From: a virus
Taxonomy: Duplodnaviria; Caudoviricetes
Virus record (IMG/VR): IMGVR_UViG_3300037454_000475
Span: 32,001-96,000 of that record
Strand: one strand, 5' to 3'
DNA length: 64,000 nucleotides
The notes under the pieces were generated by a model. That model was not told the DNA's origin. It was given only the letters and a program-made list of their open reading frames with translations, and did not search any database. Positions 4,075 through 18,157 of the stretch are shown piece after piece. The stretch's first letter is position 1; each line of letters opens with the position of its first letter. The position numbers and the translations under genes were made by a program.

Positions 4075-4234
4075 ATTAGCAGATTTGGTTTAACGTATGC
4101 CGGAGTTCTGCCGGACTCCCACGGATGGGTTCCTCTCTTTTGCGGCTTATCCATCAGCCGTCATACCGGGCATCCTGACTTTCGGTATGCTTTACCCACG
4201 TTTTTACCAGTTATGGACGTTATCAGGTTGGTAG

Positions 4235-5014: not shown

Positions 5015-5788
5015 TTAATTCAAAGGAATATACTTAAAATTACGGACTTTTAACGGTGTATCAAGCCTATTTGGACGAATTTTTGGATCATCGACATTGA
5101 TATCGATAATGAAATCCATCAAATATCCCTTTTGTGGATCTTTCAGGTTATTTGTAAGCATGTTGGTGTATTTCCTTGATACCGTTTTTGTGACAATTCC
5201 GTTGGCTTTGAACGTTATCTTATCCGGACGCCACTCACACTCATACTTGATCCAATTCTCGGTGGGGTCAAGAGGCTGGTCACATTTCGTGACATTCTTG
5301 GATCCGAGATGTTCATGCACCATTTTACGGTTGTTATAGTGTACATTGTATGTAGTACGCCATGACTTTCCGATCCACGGAAAATGGTTGGTGAAGTTTT
5401 GTAGATAATTTCCACCAGTGGTAAGCACCTCCATCACGTCAATCTCCGGAGGCCAATTCCCGGCGCCACTCAACCAACAAGCACAACCAACATTAAGTCC
5501 TTTTGGAATCATCACTTCAATGGAGAATGTGCCGTAATCAAAATGTTGTCTTGTACGTATCAGTGCTCTTTCAATTGTTGGATGATATACCTTACCATTC
5601 CAGTGTTTTACCTCCCTTGGATTTTCACGGTAATACAGGTGAATCTCGCCGTTTGGCATCCTTTTCACTACATCCTCGGAATCGCTATACCATGCATGTG
5701 GATAACTCGAATGAATTATTCTTCCACCATCCATTTCGCATGACCAGTCATATCCGCACCAATTGAATAAGCTCTTTTCCATATACAC
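5015..5788 (-). CDS. Glycoside hydrolase family 16
   Basis: Catalytic motif WPPEIDVME; YGTFSIEV and EWRPDKITF segments. Confidence 0.88.
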   Translation of the reverse strand: MYMEKSLFNWCGYDWSCEMDGGRIIHSSYPHAWYSDSEDVVKRMPNGEIHLYYRENPREVKHWNGKVYHPTIERALIRTRQHFDYGTFSIEVMIPKGLNVGCACWLSGAGNWPPEIDVMEVLTTGGNYLQNFTNHFPWIGKSWRTTYNVHYNNRKMVHEHLGSKNVTKCDQPLDPTENWIKYECEWRPDKITFKANGIVTKTVSRKYTNMLTNNLKDPQKGYLMDFIIDINVDDPKIRPNRLDTPLKVRNFKYIPLN

Positions 5789-6659: not shown

Positions 6660-6860
6660 TGTGGGTTTACAGTACCCACGGACTGTATGTTGCCGGGAGT
6701 CGTATTGAACCGTATTCGGGATTCGTGCACCTACCCAAATTTGTAAAACGGACAGCCATTAAAAATCCTTGAATATGCATCTCCAAGGCAATCGCCGGTA
6801 CGCCGCCGAAACGGGGACACTCCCGTAAGAACCGGTCTATAGCTGTTTTTGCCGACATTT
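6660..6860 (-). ncRNA. Structured spacer RNA ending in an H-type pseudoknot
   Basis: TACAGT/ACTGTA with GTGGGT/ACCCAC; long-range CGGGAGT/ACTCCCG. Confidence 0.5.
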
Positions 6861-6870
6861 ATTAGGCTTG

Positions 6871-6947
6871 AAACTTTAATCGGATTCGAACCGATAATAA
6901 CCCATTGATGCATCCGCGGGGCTGGTTTGCCGTTAGCCTATAAAGTT
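6871..6947 (-). ncRNA. tRNA-like RNA with aberrant anticodon arm
   Basis: Perfect acceptor AACTTTA/TAAAGTT and T arm ATCGG-TTCGAAT-CCGAT. Confidence 0.7.
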
Positions 6948-7042
6948 TTCCTCGTGTCATTTTACGCGTTTTTCTTACCTGTGGAAGAGCCTATACCCAA
7001 ATTGTACGTTATGGGCAGGATATGACACTACTGTACAAGTTT

Positions 7043-7117
7043 GCTGTGTAGGGGGATTCGAACCACCAACCGGCGGCTTTCCGGCCACCAGCTCTACCGT
7101 TGAGCATTACTACACAC
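7043..7117 (-). ncRNA. Anticodon-less tRNA mimic, copy 1
   Basis: TGTGTAG/CTACACA; AC arm GGTGGC-CGGAAA-GCCGCC. Confidence 0.75.
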
Positions 7118-7207
7118 ACTCGTCTACCATACGAGCGGCACATTCAATTTCAACCGGGGCGTATGTCCCGGCCACCGGCTGGTAGTACCGGTAAGAAACC
7201 TTCAATG
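7118..7207 (-). ncRNA. Kissing-loop RNA motif, copy 1
   Basis: Loops CTACCA and TGGTAG; stems covary with copy 2. Confidence 0.7.
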
Positions 7208-7209
7208 CG

Positions 7210-7283
7210 TCATCCCGCGGGGACTCGAACCCACGATTTCAAGAGTGAGAATCTTGTTTCCTAACCTGTTAGAAGACAGGACG
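7210..7283 (-). tRNA. tRNA-Glu(CTC)
   Basis: CAAGA-TT CTC AC-TCTTG. Confidence 0.92.
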
Positions 7284-7294
7284 ATAAATAATTG

Positions 7295-7382
7295 TTGCGG
7301 TCGTGGGAGTCGAACCCACTATCACTCCTCTCATGAAGCGGAGCGTTATCGGCGCGTCACCTTTCCGTTTAACTCCACCGCA
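7295..7382 (-). ncRNA. Aberrant tRNA-like RNA with CAT loop and insert between D and AC arms
   Basis: TGCGGT/ACCGCA; T arm GTGGG-TTCGACT-CCCAC; loop TT CAT GA. Confidence 0.6.
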
Positions 7383-7409
7383 CGGGACGCCTCCCGTAAT
7401 TACGTAATC

Positions 7410-7483
7410 GCTGTGTAGGAGGGCTCGAACCTCAACCGGCCGCGTCCCGCAGCCAGCTCTACCTGTTGAGACTTACTACACAC
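7410..7483 (-). ncRNA. Anticodon-less tRNA mimic, copy 2
   Basis: TGTGTAG/CTACACA; AC arm is an 8-bp stem with a GGA triloop. Confidence 0.75.
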
Positions 7484-7571
7484 ACTCGTCTACCACCGAG
7501 TGGCATTTTCCGGTTTCACCCGGGAACTCCGTCCCGGGGCTGAATGGTAGTTCAGTGAGAAACCTTCAACG
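7484..7571 (-). ncRNA. Kissing-loop RNA motif, copy 2
   Basis: CTGAA-CTACCA-TTCAG and ACTCG-GTGGTAGA-CGAGT. Confidence 0.7.
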
Positions 7572-7573
7572 CG

Positions 7574-7645
7574 TCATCCCGTGGGGGCTCGAACCCCAAT
7601 TCCAAGATCGAAAATCTTGTTTCCTACCTGTTAGAAGACAGGACG
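7574..7645 (-). tRNA. tRNA-Glu(TTC)
   Basis: CAAGA-TT TTC GA-TCTTG. Confidence 0.92.
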
Positions 7646-7754
7646 ATGACTGCCGCGGTTTTGATAAGGTAGGCCCGCGGAGAACCTCATACTACCCCGA
7701 GGCTTCACCAAATCGTGTCAGTTACTTCACTGGAGCACGCCCCCTCGGTTGTTG

Positions 7755-7826
7755 TAGTCGGTACGGGATTCGAACCCATGTGACAAGATTGAAAATCTTG
7801 TATCCTAACCTTTAGATGAACCGACC
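7755..7826 (-). tRNA. tRNA-Glu(TTC)
   Basis: CAAGA-TT TTC AA-TCTTG. Confidence 0.94.
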
Positions 7827-9913: not shown

Positions 9914-10047
9914 GCGGGGAGAACAGGATTCGAACCCATCTTATTTACGGCCTATGAACTTACTTTACCGGTATTAGCTCTTCCCGGTGTTTCTTTTCAA
10001 ATCCAACCTAACGGATAAAAGCCGGCCTCACGTTAGGAGCATCCCCA
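9914..10047 (-). ncRNA. tRNA-like acceptor/T domain with unrelated interior
   Basis: TGGGGA/TCCCCG; ATGGG-TTCGAAT-CCTGT. Confidence 0.55.
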
Positions 10048-10064
10048 ATATTTGTTTCCGGCAT

Positions 10065-10142
10065 TGGTTGCGGGAACCGGATTCGAACCGGTGTGGAACG
10101 GCTTATGAGACCGTGCTGGAACCATCTCCAGTCTATCCCGCA
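10065..10142 (-). tRNA. tRNA-Met(CAT), CCA encoded
   Basis: ACGGT-CT CAT AA-GCCGT; TGCGGGA/TCCCGCA. Confidence 0.9.
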
Positions 10143-10150
10143 ATAAATAG

Positions 10151-10267
10151 GTGCTTGGGTTGGACTCGCACCAACAACCTTCCGGTCTCATCCGGAGGCT
10201 CTACATAACCGCGGTGGTATTGATCAGATACCTGCTGACATCATGCCCCTATTTGAGCTACCAAGCT
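10151..10267 (-). ncRNA. tRNA-like RNA with ~50-nt D-loop insert and 6-nt anticodon loop
   Basis: D stem GCTC/GAGC; TCCGG-ATGAGA-CCGGA; T loop TGCGAGT. Confidence 0.7.
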
Positions 10268-12241: not shown

Positions 12242-13201
12242 TTATATCTTCCCGTTAAACGGGTTCGGTATTCCGTAAATTTTGTAGATCAAATGATCAT
12301 TTATATCAAATGGGTTACCATACAACTTCGAGTACCTAAATATGCAATCGTTCTTGTATTTTTCAAACATTTCATCGGTATAGGTAAGTTCCTTGTACTT
12401 CTCCCTAAAATCCATGGCAGCTTTCCAATCAAGATCCCGGATATCCTCAACCGGATCATCCATAACCGTTAACAAACCTTCAAAATAATTGAATGTGGAA
12501 GCTGATGTCAGTATATGTTTACCCATACAGATGTTCTCAAATATGCGAACCACATTTTGTGAAATTGCGGTATCCGATTCCGGGTTATGAGGTACGTCCA
12601 AAATAAATTTGGTGTTGTACACAACATCCTTGATTTCGTTGGGTCTCAATCCTTCGATACAATAAAATGACTTATCAATAAGTTTGATTTCATCAAAATA
12701 TTTTTTTCTCGAACTTGATGCTTGACCAAAAAATCCAAGATTATAATCATAATCCCCGGAATTTCCGATGTGCTCTGATTGATTGTAAAATCTTAATGGC
12801 ATCCACTTGAGCTTGTTCCATTGATTTGGGAGGAGTTCCTTGTAATACTCAAAGGATTCCAGCCACAAAAGCCATATTTCATCAACATCCTGCAACCATT
12901 CATCTTCCATGTACGGCATAACCCAATACGGTGAATGTTCGGTTTCAAGTAATATCAACTTATTGTATCTCGCCTTTATTTCCTTGAGATCGTACAAATT
13001 GATTGGTTGGGTTGGATATGGCTTTATGTCAAACGGAGCTTTTTTCGAATCAAACCGATCAATACATGGCCAATTGAATATGAGTGTCCCTTGTGGTTCG
13101 GTTTCATCATAGTGCTCAAGGATCATATCCCGAACGCTTGTGATATCCGAATTGAAGAATACACTAATATTTTTGCCACGTTGCAAATAGTTGATCTTCA
13201 T
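12242..13201 (-). CDS. Putative glycosyltransferase (YkvP/CgeB-like, GT-B)
   Basis: Start MKINYLQRG; C-terminal FFGQ...SR, KFILDV, NVVRIFENICMG pattern. Confidence 0.6.
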   Translation of the reverse strand: MKINYLQRGKNISVFFNSDITSVRDMILEHYDETEPQGTLIFNWPCIDRFDSKKAPFDIKPYPTQPINLYDLKEIKARYNKLILLETEHSPYWVMPYMEDEWLQDVDEIWLLWLESFEYYKELLPNQWNKLKWMPLRFYNQSEHIGNSGDYDYNLGFFGQASSSRKKYFDEIKLIDKSFYCIEGLRPNEIKDVVYNTKFILDVPHNPESDTAISQNVVRIFENICMGKHILTSASTFNYFEGLLTVMDDPVEDIRDLDWKAAMDFREKYKELTYTDEMFEKYKNDCIFRYSKLYGNPFDINDHLIYKIYGIPNPFNGKI

Positions 13202-13217
13202 ATGTTTGCTTTTTATT

Positions 13218-13288
13218 GCACAACCTGTGAGGAATTGAACCTCAACCCCCGGCCGCGCCGGTGCTCTATACCGTGAGCTACAGGTGTA
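13218..13288 (-). ncRNA. Anticodon-less tRNA mimic (3-nt loop)
   Basis: CCGGC-GCG-GCCGG; canonical D and T arms. Confidence 0.75.
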
Positions 13289-13442
13289 CTTCCGAATCGC
13301 ACGGAATGCGGTTCCTTCAGGAGCCGGTAACTCTGTTTCCACCAGTTGGGTCAGGAACATACCCCCGCCTATTGCTACCAAGACGGCTAATCCCTTCTCT
13401 TTTATATCGCCCGGTAGGGAACGTGCTATCACATGTGAAAAG

Positions 13443-13513
13443 TTGTCCCGTCGGGATTCGAACCCAAAATTACAGATCCAAAATCTGTCGTGTTACCGTT
13501 ACACTACGAGACA
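13443..13513 (-). tRNA. tRNA-Gln(TTG)
   Basis: ACAGA-TT TTG GA-TCTGT; U1-A72. Confidence 0.95.
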
Positions 13514-13626
13514 ATAGTAACCCAACCTACCTCAACTTCTATTTTGCTTCATTGGCATCCTGAACCTCCGGAGAGTGGAACTTAAACCCTTTCACTGGTC
13601 TTTCAACCTTCTATCGGTTGGGTTTG

Positions 13627-16142: not shown

Positions 16143-16540
16143 TGGAGCCGCTTTCGAGTGATCCCGGACACTACCCCGGCGGGCGCGGCATACCCATATG
16201 TGTTTGTGCGATTGTATCCTATAAAAGGTGGGTGAGAACTACGCCCTCACCCGTGGCTGTGCTTCGGTGCCTAACTTTAGGCAGCGATAGCCATTTCAGT
16301 ACGTGCGCCAGTTATTGCGCGGACACCATCTCTTTTGTTCCTTCGGCCGCTGTCAAAACCAAACACCCCCATATGAGAAGGTTTATACGATACCTACAAA
16401 CGTTTGGGGACACCGTATGGCATCGATCCACCACCGATTTTTACGAAATCGGAAACGTCTTTAATTGGCGAAAGAGTGGAGGTGACGGGAGTCGAACCCG
16501 TGTCCAAACGGATTATCTAACAAAATACAAACGATTGTGC
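16143..16540 (-). ncRNA. ssrA: Circularly permuted (two-piece) tmRNA; tag (A)GARTEMAIAA
   Basis: Acceptor piece ...GGACACGGGTTCGACTCCCGTCACCTCCA (ends 16477) precedes GGGGGTGTTTGGTTTTGAC (starts 16370); G3:U70; ATAACT then tag ORF 16309-16277. Confidence 0.9.
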
Positions 16541-16544
16541 CATG

Positions 16545-16618
16545 CGGTGTTGAAGGGGCTCGAACCCTCGACCTCCGCCGTGACAGGGCGGCATTCTAAC
16601 CAGCTGAACTACAACACC
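16545..16618 (-). tRNA. tRNA-Asp(GTC)
   Basis: CCGCC-CT GTC AC-GGCGG. Confidence 0.96.
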
Positions 16619-18020: not shown

Positions 18021-18157
18021 CACCAAGACGAGGATTCGAACCTCGGCCTCAATGTCCTCTCGGGCATTGTATTCTGTCCTCTTTCCATCGTGGCAACTCC
18101 GGCCGGCTGTACAACCAGCTTATTGGTCTTACCACGACTTCATCTAACTACCTTGAT
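18021..18157 (-). ncRNA. tRNA scaffold with ~65-nt D-loop insert and GAGA-capped anticodon arm
   Basis: ATCAAGG/TCTTGGT; CAATGCCC-GAGA-GGACATTG; CGAGG-TTCGAAT-CCTCG. Confidence 0.7.

Follow-up and report, generated by a model that had tools for sequence, protein, structure and literature searches.

A duplicated RNA module with two invariant complementary loops, placed between tRNA-Glu and an anticodon-less tRNA-like structure in a phage tRNA island

The DNA analysed here, referred to as the window, is a stretch of 64,000 nucleotides that corresponds to bases 32001-96000 of a 105,290-bp IMG/VR virus record, itself about 58% complete according to CheckV. From 3.1 to 18.8 kb of the window there is a tRNA island, a single minus-strand block in which ARAGORN identifies 39 genes, one of them a permuted tmRNA (16277-16524, Rfam search), and which contains about 15 further T arms without an ARAGORN call, that is, non-canonical tRNA-like elements. 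A GH16-like gene is also located inside the island, at 5015-5788. Outside the island, coding density under the standard code is high, open reading frames of at least 150 amino acids covering 88%; reading TAG as a sense codon adds almost nothing, and TAG recoding is likewise not indicated in L009 and L010, two phage contigs that are discussed below. Family matches were obtained for almost none of the window proteins, and comparison of the neighbouring open reading frames with PHROGs and Pfam returned nothing RNA-related. The partial phage record carries no gene for an RNA ligase, RtcB or a CCA-adding enzyme, any of which could have served to circularise the RNA or to modify its 3' end, and no match to TROVE (Ro60/Rsr) or DUF2828 was found in its 105 kb (about 58% of the genome, and an Rsr protein of the host could serve).

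Within the island lie two minus-strand units, A (7283..7044) and B (7645..7411), each running from a tRNA-Glu through a middle RNA of about 93 nt to an anticodon-less tRNA-like structure (TLS). The two align at 85% column identity, and the duplicated module of the original prediction is real, at these positions and on this strand. In unit A, a tRNA-Glu(CUC) occupies 7283..7210 (minus strand; Rfam RF00005, 41.5 bits); ARAGORN misses it in the window and calls its orthologue as tRNA-Glu(ctc) in three related contigs (L097, L102 and L105). In unit B, the corresponding gene is a tRNA-Glu(UUC) at 7645..7574 (minus strand), which ARAGORN does call and which scores 50.2 bits with Rfam. The middle RNA is 93 nt long in copy A (7209..7117, minus strand), where it was delimited by a script check of the pairs, a minimum free energy (MFE) fold, alifold and pair counts, and 91 nt long in copy B (7573..7483, minus strand), which has the same architecture. 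The TLS follows at 7116..7044 in copy A, below the Rfam threshold for tRNA, and at 7482..7411 in copy B, again on the minus strand; ARAGORN calls neither.

The fit between these elements is tight. In all nine copies of the middle RNA that we could examine, it starts 1 nt past the discriminator of tRNA-Glu (in copy A the discriminator is an A, followed by one base and then by helix P0), and it ends 0 nt before the acceptor stem of the TLS in the nine copies, except in L105, where 3 nt intervene. A scan of the unit revealed no excess of promoters or terminators inside it, although the sigma-70 consensus that was used makes this result weak evidence.

The middle RNA is built in the order P0, P1 (enclosing HP1 and HP2), P1', P0' and HP3, and thus consists of a three-way-junction domain followed by a hairpin. 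On the minus strand of copy A, P0 pairs 7208..7205 with 7141..7138 and P1 pairs 7200..7195 with 7151..7146, while HP1, HP2 and HP3 occupy 7192..7174, 7172..7153 and 7137..7117. A script check finds every stem pair that had been proposed from the sequence present and pairing, in agreement with MFE folds, and these folds add P0 (GCRU/RUGC), an outer helix of 4-5 bp that was missing from the earlier list of stems. The loop of HP1, CUACCA (7185..7180 in A and 7550..7545 in B, minus strand), is complementary over 6 bp to that of HP3, UGGUAG (7129..7124 in A and 7495..7490 in B, minus strand), and a simple duplex of the two would have a stability of about -7.2 kcal/mol. Relative to copy A, copy B has its HP1 stem rewritten to CUGAA/UUCAG with both complementary loops retained, and its HP2 reads CCCGGGA/UCCCGGG with a different loop; in the B type the whole HP2 loop is replaced and the adjacent HP1 loop is untouched. 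The strands of the junction comprise 0-3 unpaired nucleotides and vary between copies, as does the purine-rich internal loop between P0 and P1. On one strand, P0 directly adjoins HP3 (G5-C77 beside C78-G98 in alignment A7, described below). The motif was not recognised when first noticed, and Rfam indeed has no family for it: searches of the whole window at gathering thresholds, and of 6900-7800 at E<=10, gave only tRNA and chance-level matches.

The TLS retains several hallmarks of tRNA, namely a 7-bp acceptor stem, a GGUUCRA T loop and the GG of the D loop. In copy A the acceptor stem is UGUGUAG/CUACACA, the D arm GCUC-AACGGUA-GAGC and the T loop UUCGAAU. The site of the anticodon arm is taken up by a 6-bp stem capped by CGGAAA in TLS-A and by a stem of 6-7 bp capped by GGA/GGGAC in TLS-B, so a 7-nt anticodon loop with U33 is absent from both, in line with the anticodon-less tRNA of the original prediction. 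Across copies the caps are 3-6 nt long and differ from one another (CGGAAA, CCGAAA, CCAAAG, UGAA(G) and GGA/GGGAC). Against the Rfam tRNA model, TLS-A reaches 18.9 bits (E 0.53) where the gathering score is 29, and TLS-B is not reported at E<=10. Pairing in alignment A7 is 100% for the acceptor stem, 92.5% for the T stem and 82.5% for the D stem. Other features depart from a standard tRNA or differ between copies: the connector from acceptor to D stem is 4 nt instead of 2, the discriminator may be G or A, and acceptor/T stacks of both 7/4 and 7/5 occur. The acceptor stem carries U3-A70 and no G3:U70 pair. A search for a parent tRNA turned up no convincing candidate, and there is no particular likeness to the tRNA(CUA) of relatives. 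A hairpin of 5-7 bp abuts the acceptor stem in TLS-A, in TLS-B and in a third TLS of the island (13222..13290). In the module, this hairpin is HP3, which adjoins the acceptor stem in eight of nine copies, with G(-1) paired in all of them. Among the 39 canonical tRNAs of the island, by comparison, most have at least three unpaired leader bases, and weak pairing is predicted within 1 nt of position -1 in three.

Searches for homologues recovered seven further full copies and one TLS-only fragment at the end of a contig, all in very close relatives of the window phage. A pair of JGI metagenome contigs carries the module, L098 belonging to the strain of the window and L097 being a two-copy variant, and contigs sharing a GH16-like gene of at least 90% identity yielded homologous modules in L096, L102, L103, L104 and L105/L106. 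The module is retained in every relative whose contig covers the region. At 60-80% identity in the GH16-like protein, the gene sits outside any tRNA island and no homologous modules were found; a 1930-aa protein, used as an alternative marker, identified no relatives.

The original prediction had proposed a covariance model, and two were built, one from copy A (R1) and another from ten aligned sequences (R2). True members score 160-204 bits with R2 and everything else at most 45 bits. The best non-member, at 45 bits, is a tRNA-Asn with an upstream hairpin, and the non-member matches in general are tRNAs with upstream hairpins. Neither model found a member in more distant phages bearing the leader that we call C-type (G001, G002 and G004; see below) or in others. 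Pattern and similarity searches gave a comparable picture. A conserved 22-mer has no match in IMG/VR, and the 76 matches to a pattern of P1 plus both loops were all judged random, being without the flanking stems and the T loop. The TLS pattern matched nothing in IMG/VR and two contigs in the JGI metagenomes. A pattern for the HP3/TLS junction had no match in IMG/VR and one among 185,579 species genomes, in a marine gammaproteobacterium, which the covariance model rejected. A blastn comparison with 50,697 phage records returned only a 63-bp tRNA-like match. The RNA family is real, and within the reach of these searches it is limited to a single narrow clade of large, uncultivated phages.

The distribution of copies among these relatives bears on the history of the module. 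L102 and L105 each possess one module only, which comes immediately after tRNA-Glu(CUC), and the second copy, behind tRNA-Glu(UUC), is present only in the sublineage comprising the window, L098, L104 and L097. We take the ancestral state to be one copy after tRNA-Glu(CUC), and copy B to be a recent duplication within this sublineage. In copy B of L097, HP1 and HP2 are of the A type and the TLS is of the B type, a combination that indicates gene conversion. Middle RNA and TLS invariably occur as a pair, and the duplication took in both.

To assess the secondary structure we used a model-guided alignment (A7) of 10 rows, nine of which include the middle RNA. Standard pairs make up 96.6% of its pair cells, against 33-45% when the partners are slid by 1-3 columns; nine pairs are altered on both sides, and the observed covariation score was reached by none of 500 shuffles. 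Four of the six HP1 pairs have changed on both sides, by way of at least three separate variants (the B type, L102 and L105). HP3 is closed by U-A, G-C or A/G, and two pairs of the stem that replaces the anticodon arm of the TLS are altered on both sides. RNAalifold, run on an independent MAFFT alignment of nine copies, recovers P0, P1, HP1, HP2 and HP3. As all copies come from closely related phages, the independent events are few, the main ones being the divergence of A type from B type, the L102 type and the L105 type. The claim that the two copies give direct evidence of selection on structure needs to be divided: selection on secondary structure is upheld by the standard pairs, the both-sided changes and the shuffles taken together, whereas the window by itself offers essentially one comparison, A against B.

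The two complementary loops behave differently from the stems. CUACCA and UGGUAG are invariant in all nine copies while their closing pairs vary, so that complementarity, the loss of which in homologues would have counted against the proposed structure, is conserved in every homologue found. None of the 12 loop-loop columns is variable, whereas outside the two loops variation is seen in 14 of the 24 unpaired columns and in 19 of the 58 columns of the stems; the invariance of the loops among unpaired columns has a hypergeometric p of about 5e-4, a value that ignores relatedness. The six loop-loop pairs never vary, and there is accordingly no covariation for the kissing helix itself. Because the 12 loop columns are invariant amid variable unpaired columns and stems, we read the pattern as a constraint that would act on the loop sequences themselves, beyond their mutual complementarity.

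The same island holds a second combination of leader and TLS, at 13432..13222, in which an unrelated structured leader of about 145 nt (the C-type leader) accompanies the TLS at 13222..13290, likewise anticodon-less and with a sealed anticodon arm. Three IMG/VR phage contigs that are distant in other respects (L009, L010 and L100) share this leader at about 95% identity; a genuine tRNA with anticodon CUA comes after it in L009 and L010, and a truncated TLS in L100. The helices of the leader are supported by compensatory changes. All close relatives of the window keep this leader together with a TLS of variable cap. An Rfam search of 13150-13520 at E<=10 gave only tRNA and chance-level matches. 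We considered whether the C-type leader shares a CUACC/GGUAG device with the middle RNA and rejected this, as CUACC is replaced in L100 and alifold pairs the segment elsewhere. That the leader is kept whichever tRNA-shaped element follows best fits a leader with a function of its own and a downstream element that is its handle.

What might the module do? Two suggestions made at the outset, that the middle RNA is a processing signal or that it is the 5' domain of a tRNA mimic, correspond to the two leading readings. The one we favour, tentatively and at somewhat short of an even chance, is that a stable small RNA is excised from a polycistronic tRNA transcript by RNase Z and RNase P, with loop-loop pairing locking its fold and the TLS serving as a processing handle. 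RNase Z would cut behind the discriminator of tRNA-Glu and RNase P in front of the TLS, and the two cuts would release a middle RNA of about 93-95 nt with its 5' end in helix P0 and its 3' end in HP3. Since P0 and HP3 are contiguous, they could stack as one nicked helix that joins both cleavage sites and buries the new ends. The 6-bp pairing of the HP1 and HP3 loops would then tie the three-way-junction domain back onto the P0/HP3 helix, giving a compact, nuclease-resistant fold locked by this contact. The TLS keeps the acceptor stem, the T arm and the GG of the D loop but has no anticodon loop, which points to a role mainly as a processing or stability handle. UGGUAG is a common motif of tRNA D loops, and the strictness with which both loops are conserved suggests that they meet a partner whose own sequence is fixed, whether a protein, a tRNA D loop or an ACCA 3' end.

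Excision is favoured by the position of the edges of the middle RNA, 1 nt after one processing site and 0 nt (3 nt in L105) before the other, and, weakly, by the lack of a promoter or terminator excess (sigma-70 consensus) within the unit. The five helices, backed independently by alifold and pair counts, and the contrast between 12 of 12 invariant loop-loop columns and 14 of 24 variable columns among the other unpaired positions also count in its favour, as does the TLS, which conserves its acceptor stem and its T and D arms but lets the cap that replaces the anticodon loop change freely. The sister leader, maintained whichever RNase P substrate follows, points the same way, and there are precedents in T4 RNAC/RNAD, MALAT1/mascRNA and the tRNA-spacer small RNAs of E. 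coli. Three observations sit less well with this reading. A stable hairpin abutting position -1, with G(-1) paired, makes an unfavourable substrate for bacterial RNase P, and such a hairpin, which the canonical tRNAs of the island lack, is found at all three TLSs, where it could block cleavage. RNase P would need no more than an acceptor/T minihelix; that compensatory changes also preserve the D arm and the sealed stem hints at a role of the TLS in its own right. Lastly, if mutual complementarity were all that mattered, it would remain unexplained why the loops do not covary when the stems do. The abutting hairpin may either seal the 3' end of a released leader or keep RNase P from cutting, so that the two domains remain connected.

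The second of these possibilities leads to the main rival, a serious though rather unlikely one in our judgement, in which the middle domain and the TLS stay joined as a composite RNA of about 170 nt, with the abutting hairpin preventing cleavage by RNase P. The TLS would here be a functional 3' domain, given a CCA end and perhaps aminoacylated, or recognised by the ribosome or by tRNA-binding proteins, and the kissing-loop domain would be the effector or regulatory part, a logic comparable to that of tmRNA, YrlA and the tRNA-like ends of plant viruses. The adjoining of HP3 and acceptor stem in eight of nine copies with G(-1) always paired, the lack of such hairpins at the canonical tRNAs of the island, the compensatory maintenance of the D arm and sealed stem, and the joint occurrence and joint duplication of the two parts all argue for it. 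In L105/L106, however, HP3 and the acceptor stem are separated by 3 inserted nucleotides, which speaks against a fixed geometry between the domains, and the variable discriminator and the 7/4 or 7/5 stack speak against a conserved aminoacylation identity; nor is there a G3:U70 pair, or a gene for a TROVE/Ro protein or CCA-adding enzyme in the partial phage record. A reading in which the TLS alone is the product that matters is distinctly unlikely. It would then be a non-decoding decoy or sponge that takes up a tRNA-binding factor of the host (a defence nuclease, for instance, or an enzyme of tRNA modification or processing), and the middle RNA would be nothing more than a structured spacer that helps the tRNA-shaped RNAs on either side to fold and be processed. 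The roughly 15 extra T arms without an ARAGORN call, the sealed anticodon arm that recurs at 13222..13290 and the conserved structure of the TLS would all suit such a decoy, but five helices preserved by compensatory changes, together with two complementary loops that never vary, would not be expected of a mere spacer, the other spacers of the island are not conserved in this manner, and a decoy for an anticodon nuclease should have retained its anticodon loop.

Three further explanations carry less weight. Pairing of the loops between molecules, so as to assemble dimers, rings or A/B heteromers, appears very improbable to us: the loops are identical in copies A and B and hence cross-compatible, strict invariance without covariation is expected where many molecules must stay compatible, and RNA-only kissing-loop assemblies are known for phage-associated RNAs (PMC12286853); against this, intramolecular pairing is kinetically favoured and looks sterically feasible (we estimate about 19 bp for HP1, the kissing helix and HP3 beside about 14 layers for P0, internal loop and P1), most relatives have a single copy, and there is no similarity to the pRNA, ROOL or GOLLD models. 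That the middle RNA is a self-cleaving ribozyme, as was suggested at first, or a ligand-sensing riboswitch is hardly credible. A compact three-way junction with a tertiary loop-loop contact does also occur in the hammerhead and other small ribozymes, but no family or model, whether of riboswitches or of small ribozymes such as hammerhead, twister, pistol, hatchet and HDV-like, scores even at E<=10, the junction strands are of 0-3 nt and variable, leaving no conserved unpaired core (the only strictly conserved unpaired bases are those of the two mutually pairing loops), and no protein gene lies downstream for a riboswitch to regulate. We give almost no credence to the functionless decay of duplicated tRNA genes and spacers. 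The very narrow distribution and a TLS that cannot decode would be in keeping with decay, which is at odds with the compensatory changes in HP1, HP2, HP3 and the anticodon-arm stem of the TLS, with 96.6% of pair cells being paired, with loops that are invariant amid variable neighbours and with the retention of the module in every relative that covers the region.

A more far-reaching proposal, and something of a long shot, is that the module founds a new class of 'tRNA-handled' phage RNAs, in which the kissing-loop domain, released or joined, acts on the tRNA machinery of the host through its two invariant loops, each a sequence-specific tool, or in which the loops assemble RNA-only multimers. 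The loops would then act as an ACCA-containing mimic of the tRNA 3' end and as a UGGUAG mimic of a D loop or of a CCA-binding element, and what they capture or compete for would be the D loops or CCA ends of tRNAs, RNase P or a defence protein directed at tRNA. If this is so, a structured leader with a tRNA-shaped handle would be a general phage design, since the sister module pairs another leader with either an amber-suppressor tRNA or a disarmed look-alike. If, instead, the excision that we favour is correct, phages use the tRNA-processing enzymes of their hosts as a general route to stable small RNAs, the same trick as that of MALAT1 in animals and of engineered tRNA scaffolds; if the two domains remain joined, the module is a new tRNA mimic with an effector domain from a bacterial virus. 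The narrow distribution limits the present weight of the finding. Even so, at least some of the spacers in tRNA islands, which are usually ignored, are selected, well-folded RNAs coupled to non-decoding, tRNA-shaped elements, and this compact system of about 170 nt bears on why the island holds some 15 more non-canonical tRNA-like RNAs.

How does the module compare with known systems? The closest working analogue of the proposed logic is eukaryotic. In MALAT1 and MEN-beta, a structure that protects the 3' end lies directly upstream of a tRNA-shaped, non-decoding mascRNA, which recruits RNase P (and RNase Z). The phage module resembles MALAT1/mascRNA (Rfam RF01684) in having a structured element upstream of a tRNA-shaped handle, and differs in that the former is nuclear and its upstream element a triple helix, whereas the phage element is a kissing-loop domain whose cleavage is only proposed. 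Membership of the mascRNA family itself is rejected: with a gathering score of 42.5, the Rfam model reaches 17.5 and 14 bits here, no better than chance. Small RNAs with ends made by tRNA enzymes include 3'ETS-leuZ and ITS-metZW of E. coli and the tRNA-miRNA units of the herpesvirus MHV68. These too are embedded in tRNA or tRNA-like transcripts, but they act by linear base-pairing or as miRNA hairpins, unlike a kissing-loop domain; we know of none among them that has a kissing-loop three-way-junction domain, or, in bacteria, a dedicated anticodon-less handle. With tmRNA the module shares an anticodon-less tRNA-like domain joined to a structured, pseudoknotted RNA, but it is without G3:U70 and without a tag reading frame, and its TLS has a full D arm; no tmRNA model matches the module, the only match being a 17-nt T-arm fragment at 7303-7319. 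The pRNA of phi29 is likewise a phage RNA of similar size with a tight three-way junction and two mutually complementary loops. In pRNA, however, pairing of the loops is intermolecular and builds a ring at the packaging motor, and the loop topology differs, one of the loops of the present RNA lying outside the junction; there is no Rfam match to a phi29-type pRNA, and the present phage is a large one of about 180 kb without a known phi29-like packaging system.

Two bacterial and phage precedents remain. Y RNAs of the YrlA type combine a tRNA-like domain with a second module, and some are cut by RNase P and receive CCA (PMC4201824). The likeness extends to the T arm, the D arm, an acceptor-like stem and the non-decoding character of the tRNA-like domain, but the ends of YrlA lie in the Ro-binding stem and its 'acceptor' is an internal hairpin, whereas the acceptor stem of the phage TLS carries the 3' end; no Y RNA family matches in Rfam (6900-7800, E<=10), and no GNCGAA motif was seen on reading the middle RNA. 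The tRNA region of phage T4 yields two stable RNAs of unknown role, RNAC and RNAD (described in passages of PMC3014915 and PMC9697503). As small stable phage RNAs beside a tRNA cluster they are the closest phage precedent, compared here by description only; they belong to another host and phage lineage, and those passages of PMC3014915 and PMC9697503 make no mention of a kissing-loop/TLS architecture. Taken together, these comparisons place the module in a general kind that is known, a stable RNA in a tRNA operon coupled to a tRNA mimic, and mark its sequence family as new to Rfam and to the literature searched.

The tRNA island is rich in non-canonical tRNA-shaped RNAs. It also holds a second kind of module in which a tRNA-shaped element follows a structured leader, on the minus strand at 13222-13432. 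The ~145-nt leader of this module is shared, at about 95% identity, by the window phage and three IMG/VR contigs that are distant in other respects; in these contigs the module lies at 9996-10215 (L009), 9996-10214 (L010) and 1825-2044 (L100). The element 3' of the leader is an anticodon-less tRNA-like structure (TLS) in the window phage and L100, and a genuine amber-suppressor tRNA(CUA) in L009 and L010. We saw no sign of TAG recoding in three phages carrying the leader (the window phage, L009 and L010), and a comparison of the second module (window 13150-13520) with Rfam gave no match.

The conserved leader RNA and TLS are overlapped by the 5' end of an ORF listed as 396 aa (12242-13432, minus strand). 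Its true start probably lies near 13203 (ATGAAGATC...), which would give a product of ~319 aa; this shorter form matches a gene call in the close relative L104 (2747-3706), and another close relative, L102, has no counterpart of the gene at the corresponding place. Pfam and PHROG searches with the ORF returned no match.

Further elements lie around the two kissing-loop module copies, A and B. Between the copies, on the minus strand at 7300-7395, is an odd tRNA-like element whose T arm reads GUGGG-UUCGACU-CCCAC and whose acceptor stem is UGCGGU/ACCGCA; it also has an 11-nt loop that includes CAU, and its counterpart in the close relative L097 is at 690-790. On the 5' side of the copy B tRNA-Glu, a hairpin, GGUAG-(19 nt)-CUACC, is followed by AAAACCGCGGCAGUCAU (7655-7700, minus strand), the words GGUAG and CUACC, known from the kissing loops, here forming a stem. 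The same hairpin is found in L097 (790-835), where it stands upstream of copy A too. A terminator-like hairpin with a U tract (6767-6788, minus strand), still within the island, lies some 250 nt downstream of copy A.

The loop word of HP3 in the middle RNA, UGGUAG, is the common D-loop/D-stem motif of ~11 island tRNAs. Apart from the two HP1 loops, the island has CUACCA in the RNA sense at a single further site, where tRNA-Val ends at its 3' side (4229-4234). Window-wide, the two hexamers together are over-represented, with 37 sites where 19.9 are expected.

Some 15 more minus-strand elements between 3343 and 18045 have a T arm and no ARAGORN call, for example those at 18045, 17866, 15742, 15601, 14725, 9939, 9521, 7319, 6895, 4741, 3978, 3698 and 3359. 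Long inserts or unusual arms are seen in many of them.

Also within the island is a GH16-like (beta-glucanase fold) gene (5015-5788, minus strand). Many large phage contigs, of up to 400 kb, carry homologues with 60-80% identity to it outside tRNA islands, and the gene therefore moves between contexts. Finally, the island contains a permuted, two-piece tmRNA gene (16186-16566, minus strand), also present in relatives, which matches the Rfam family tmRNA_permuted (63.1 bits) and for which ARAGORN gives the tag GARTEMAIAA.
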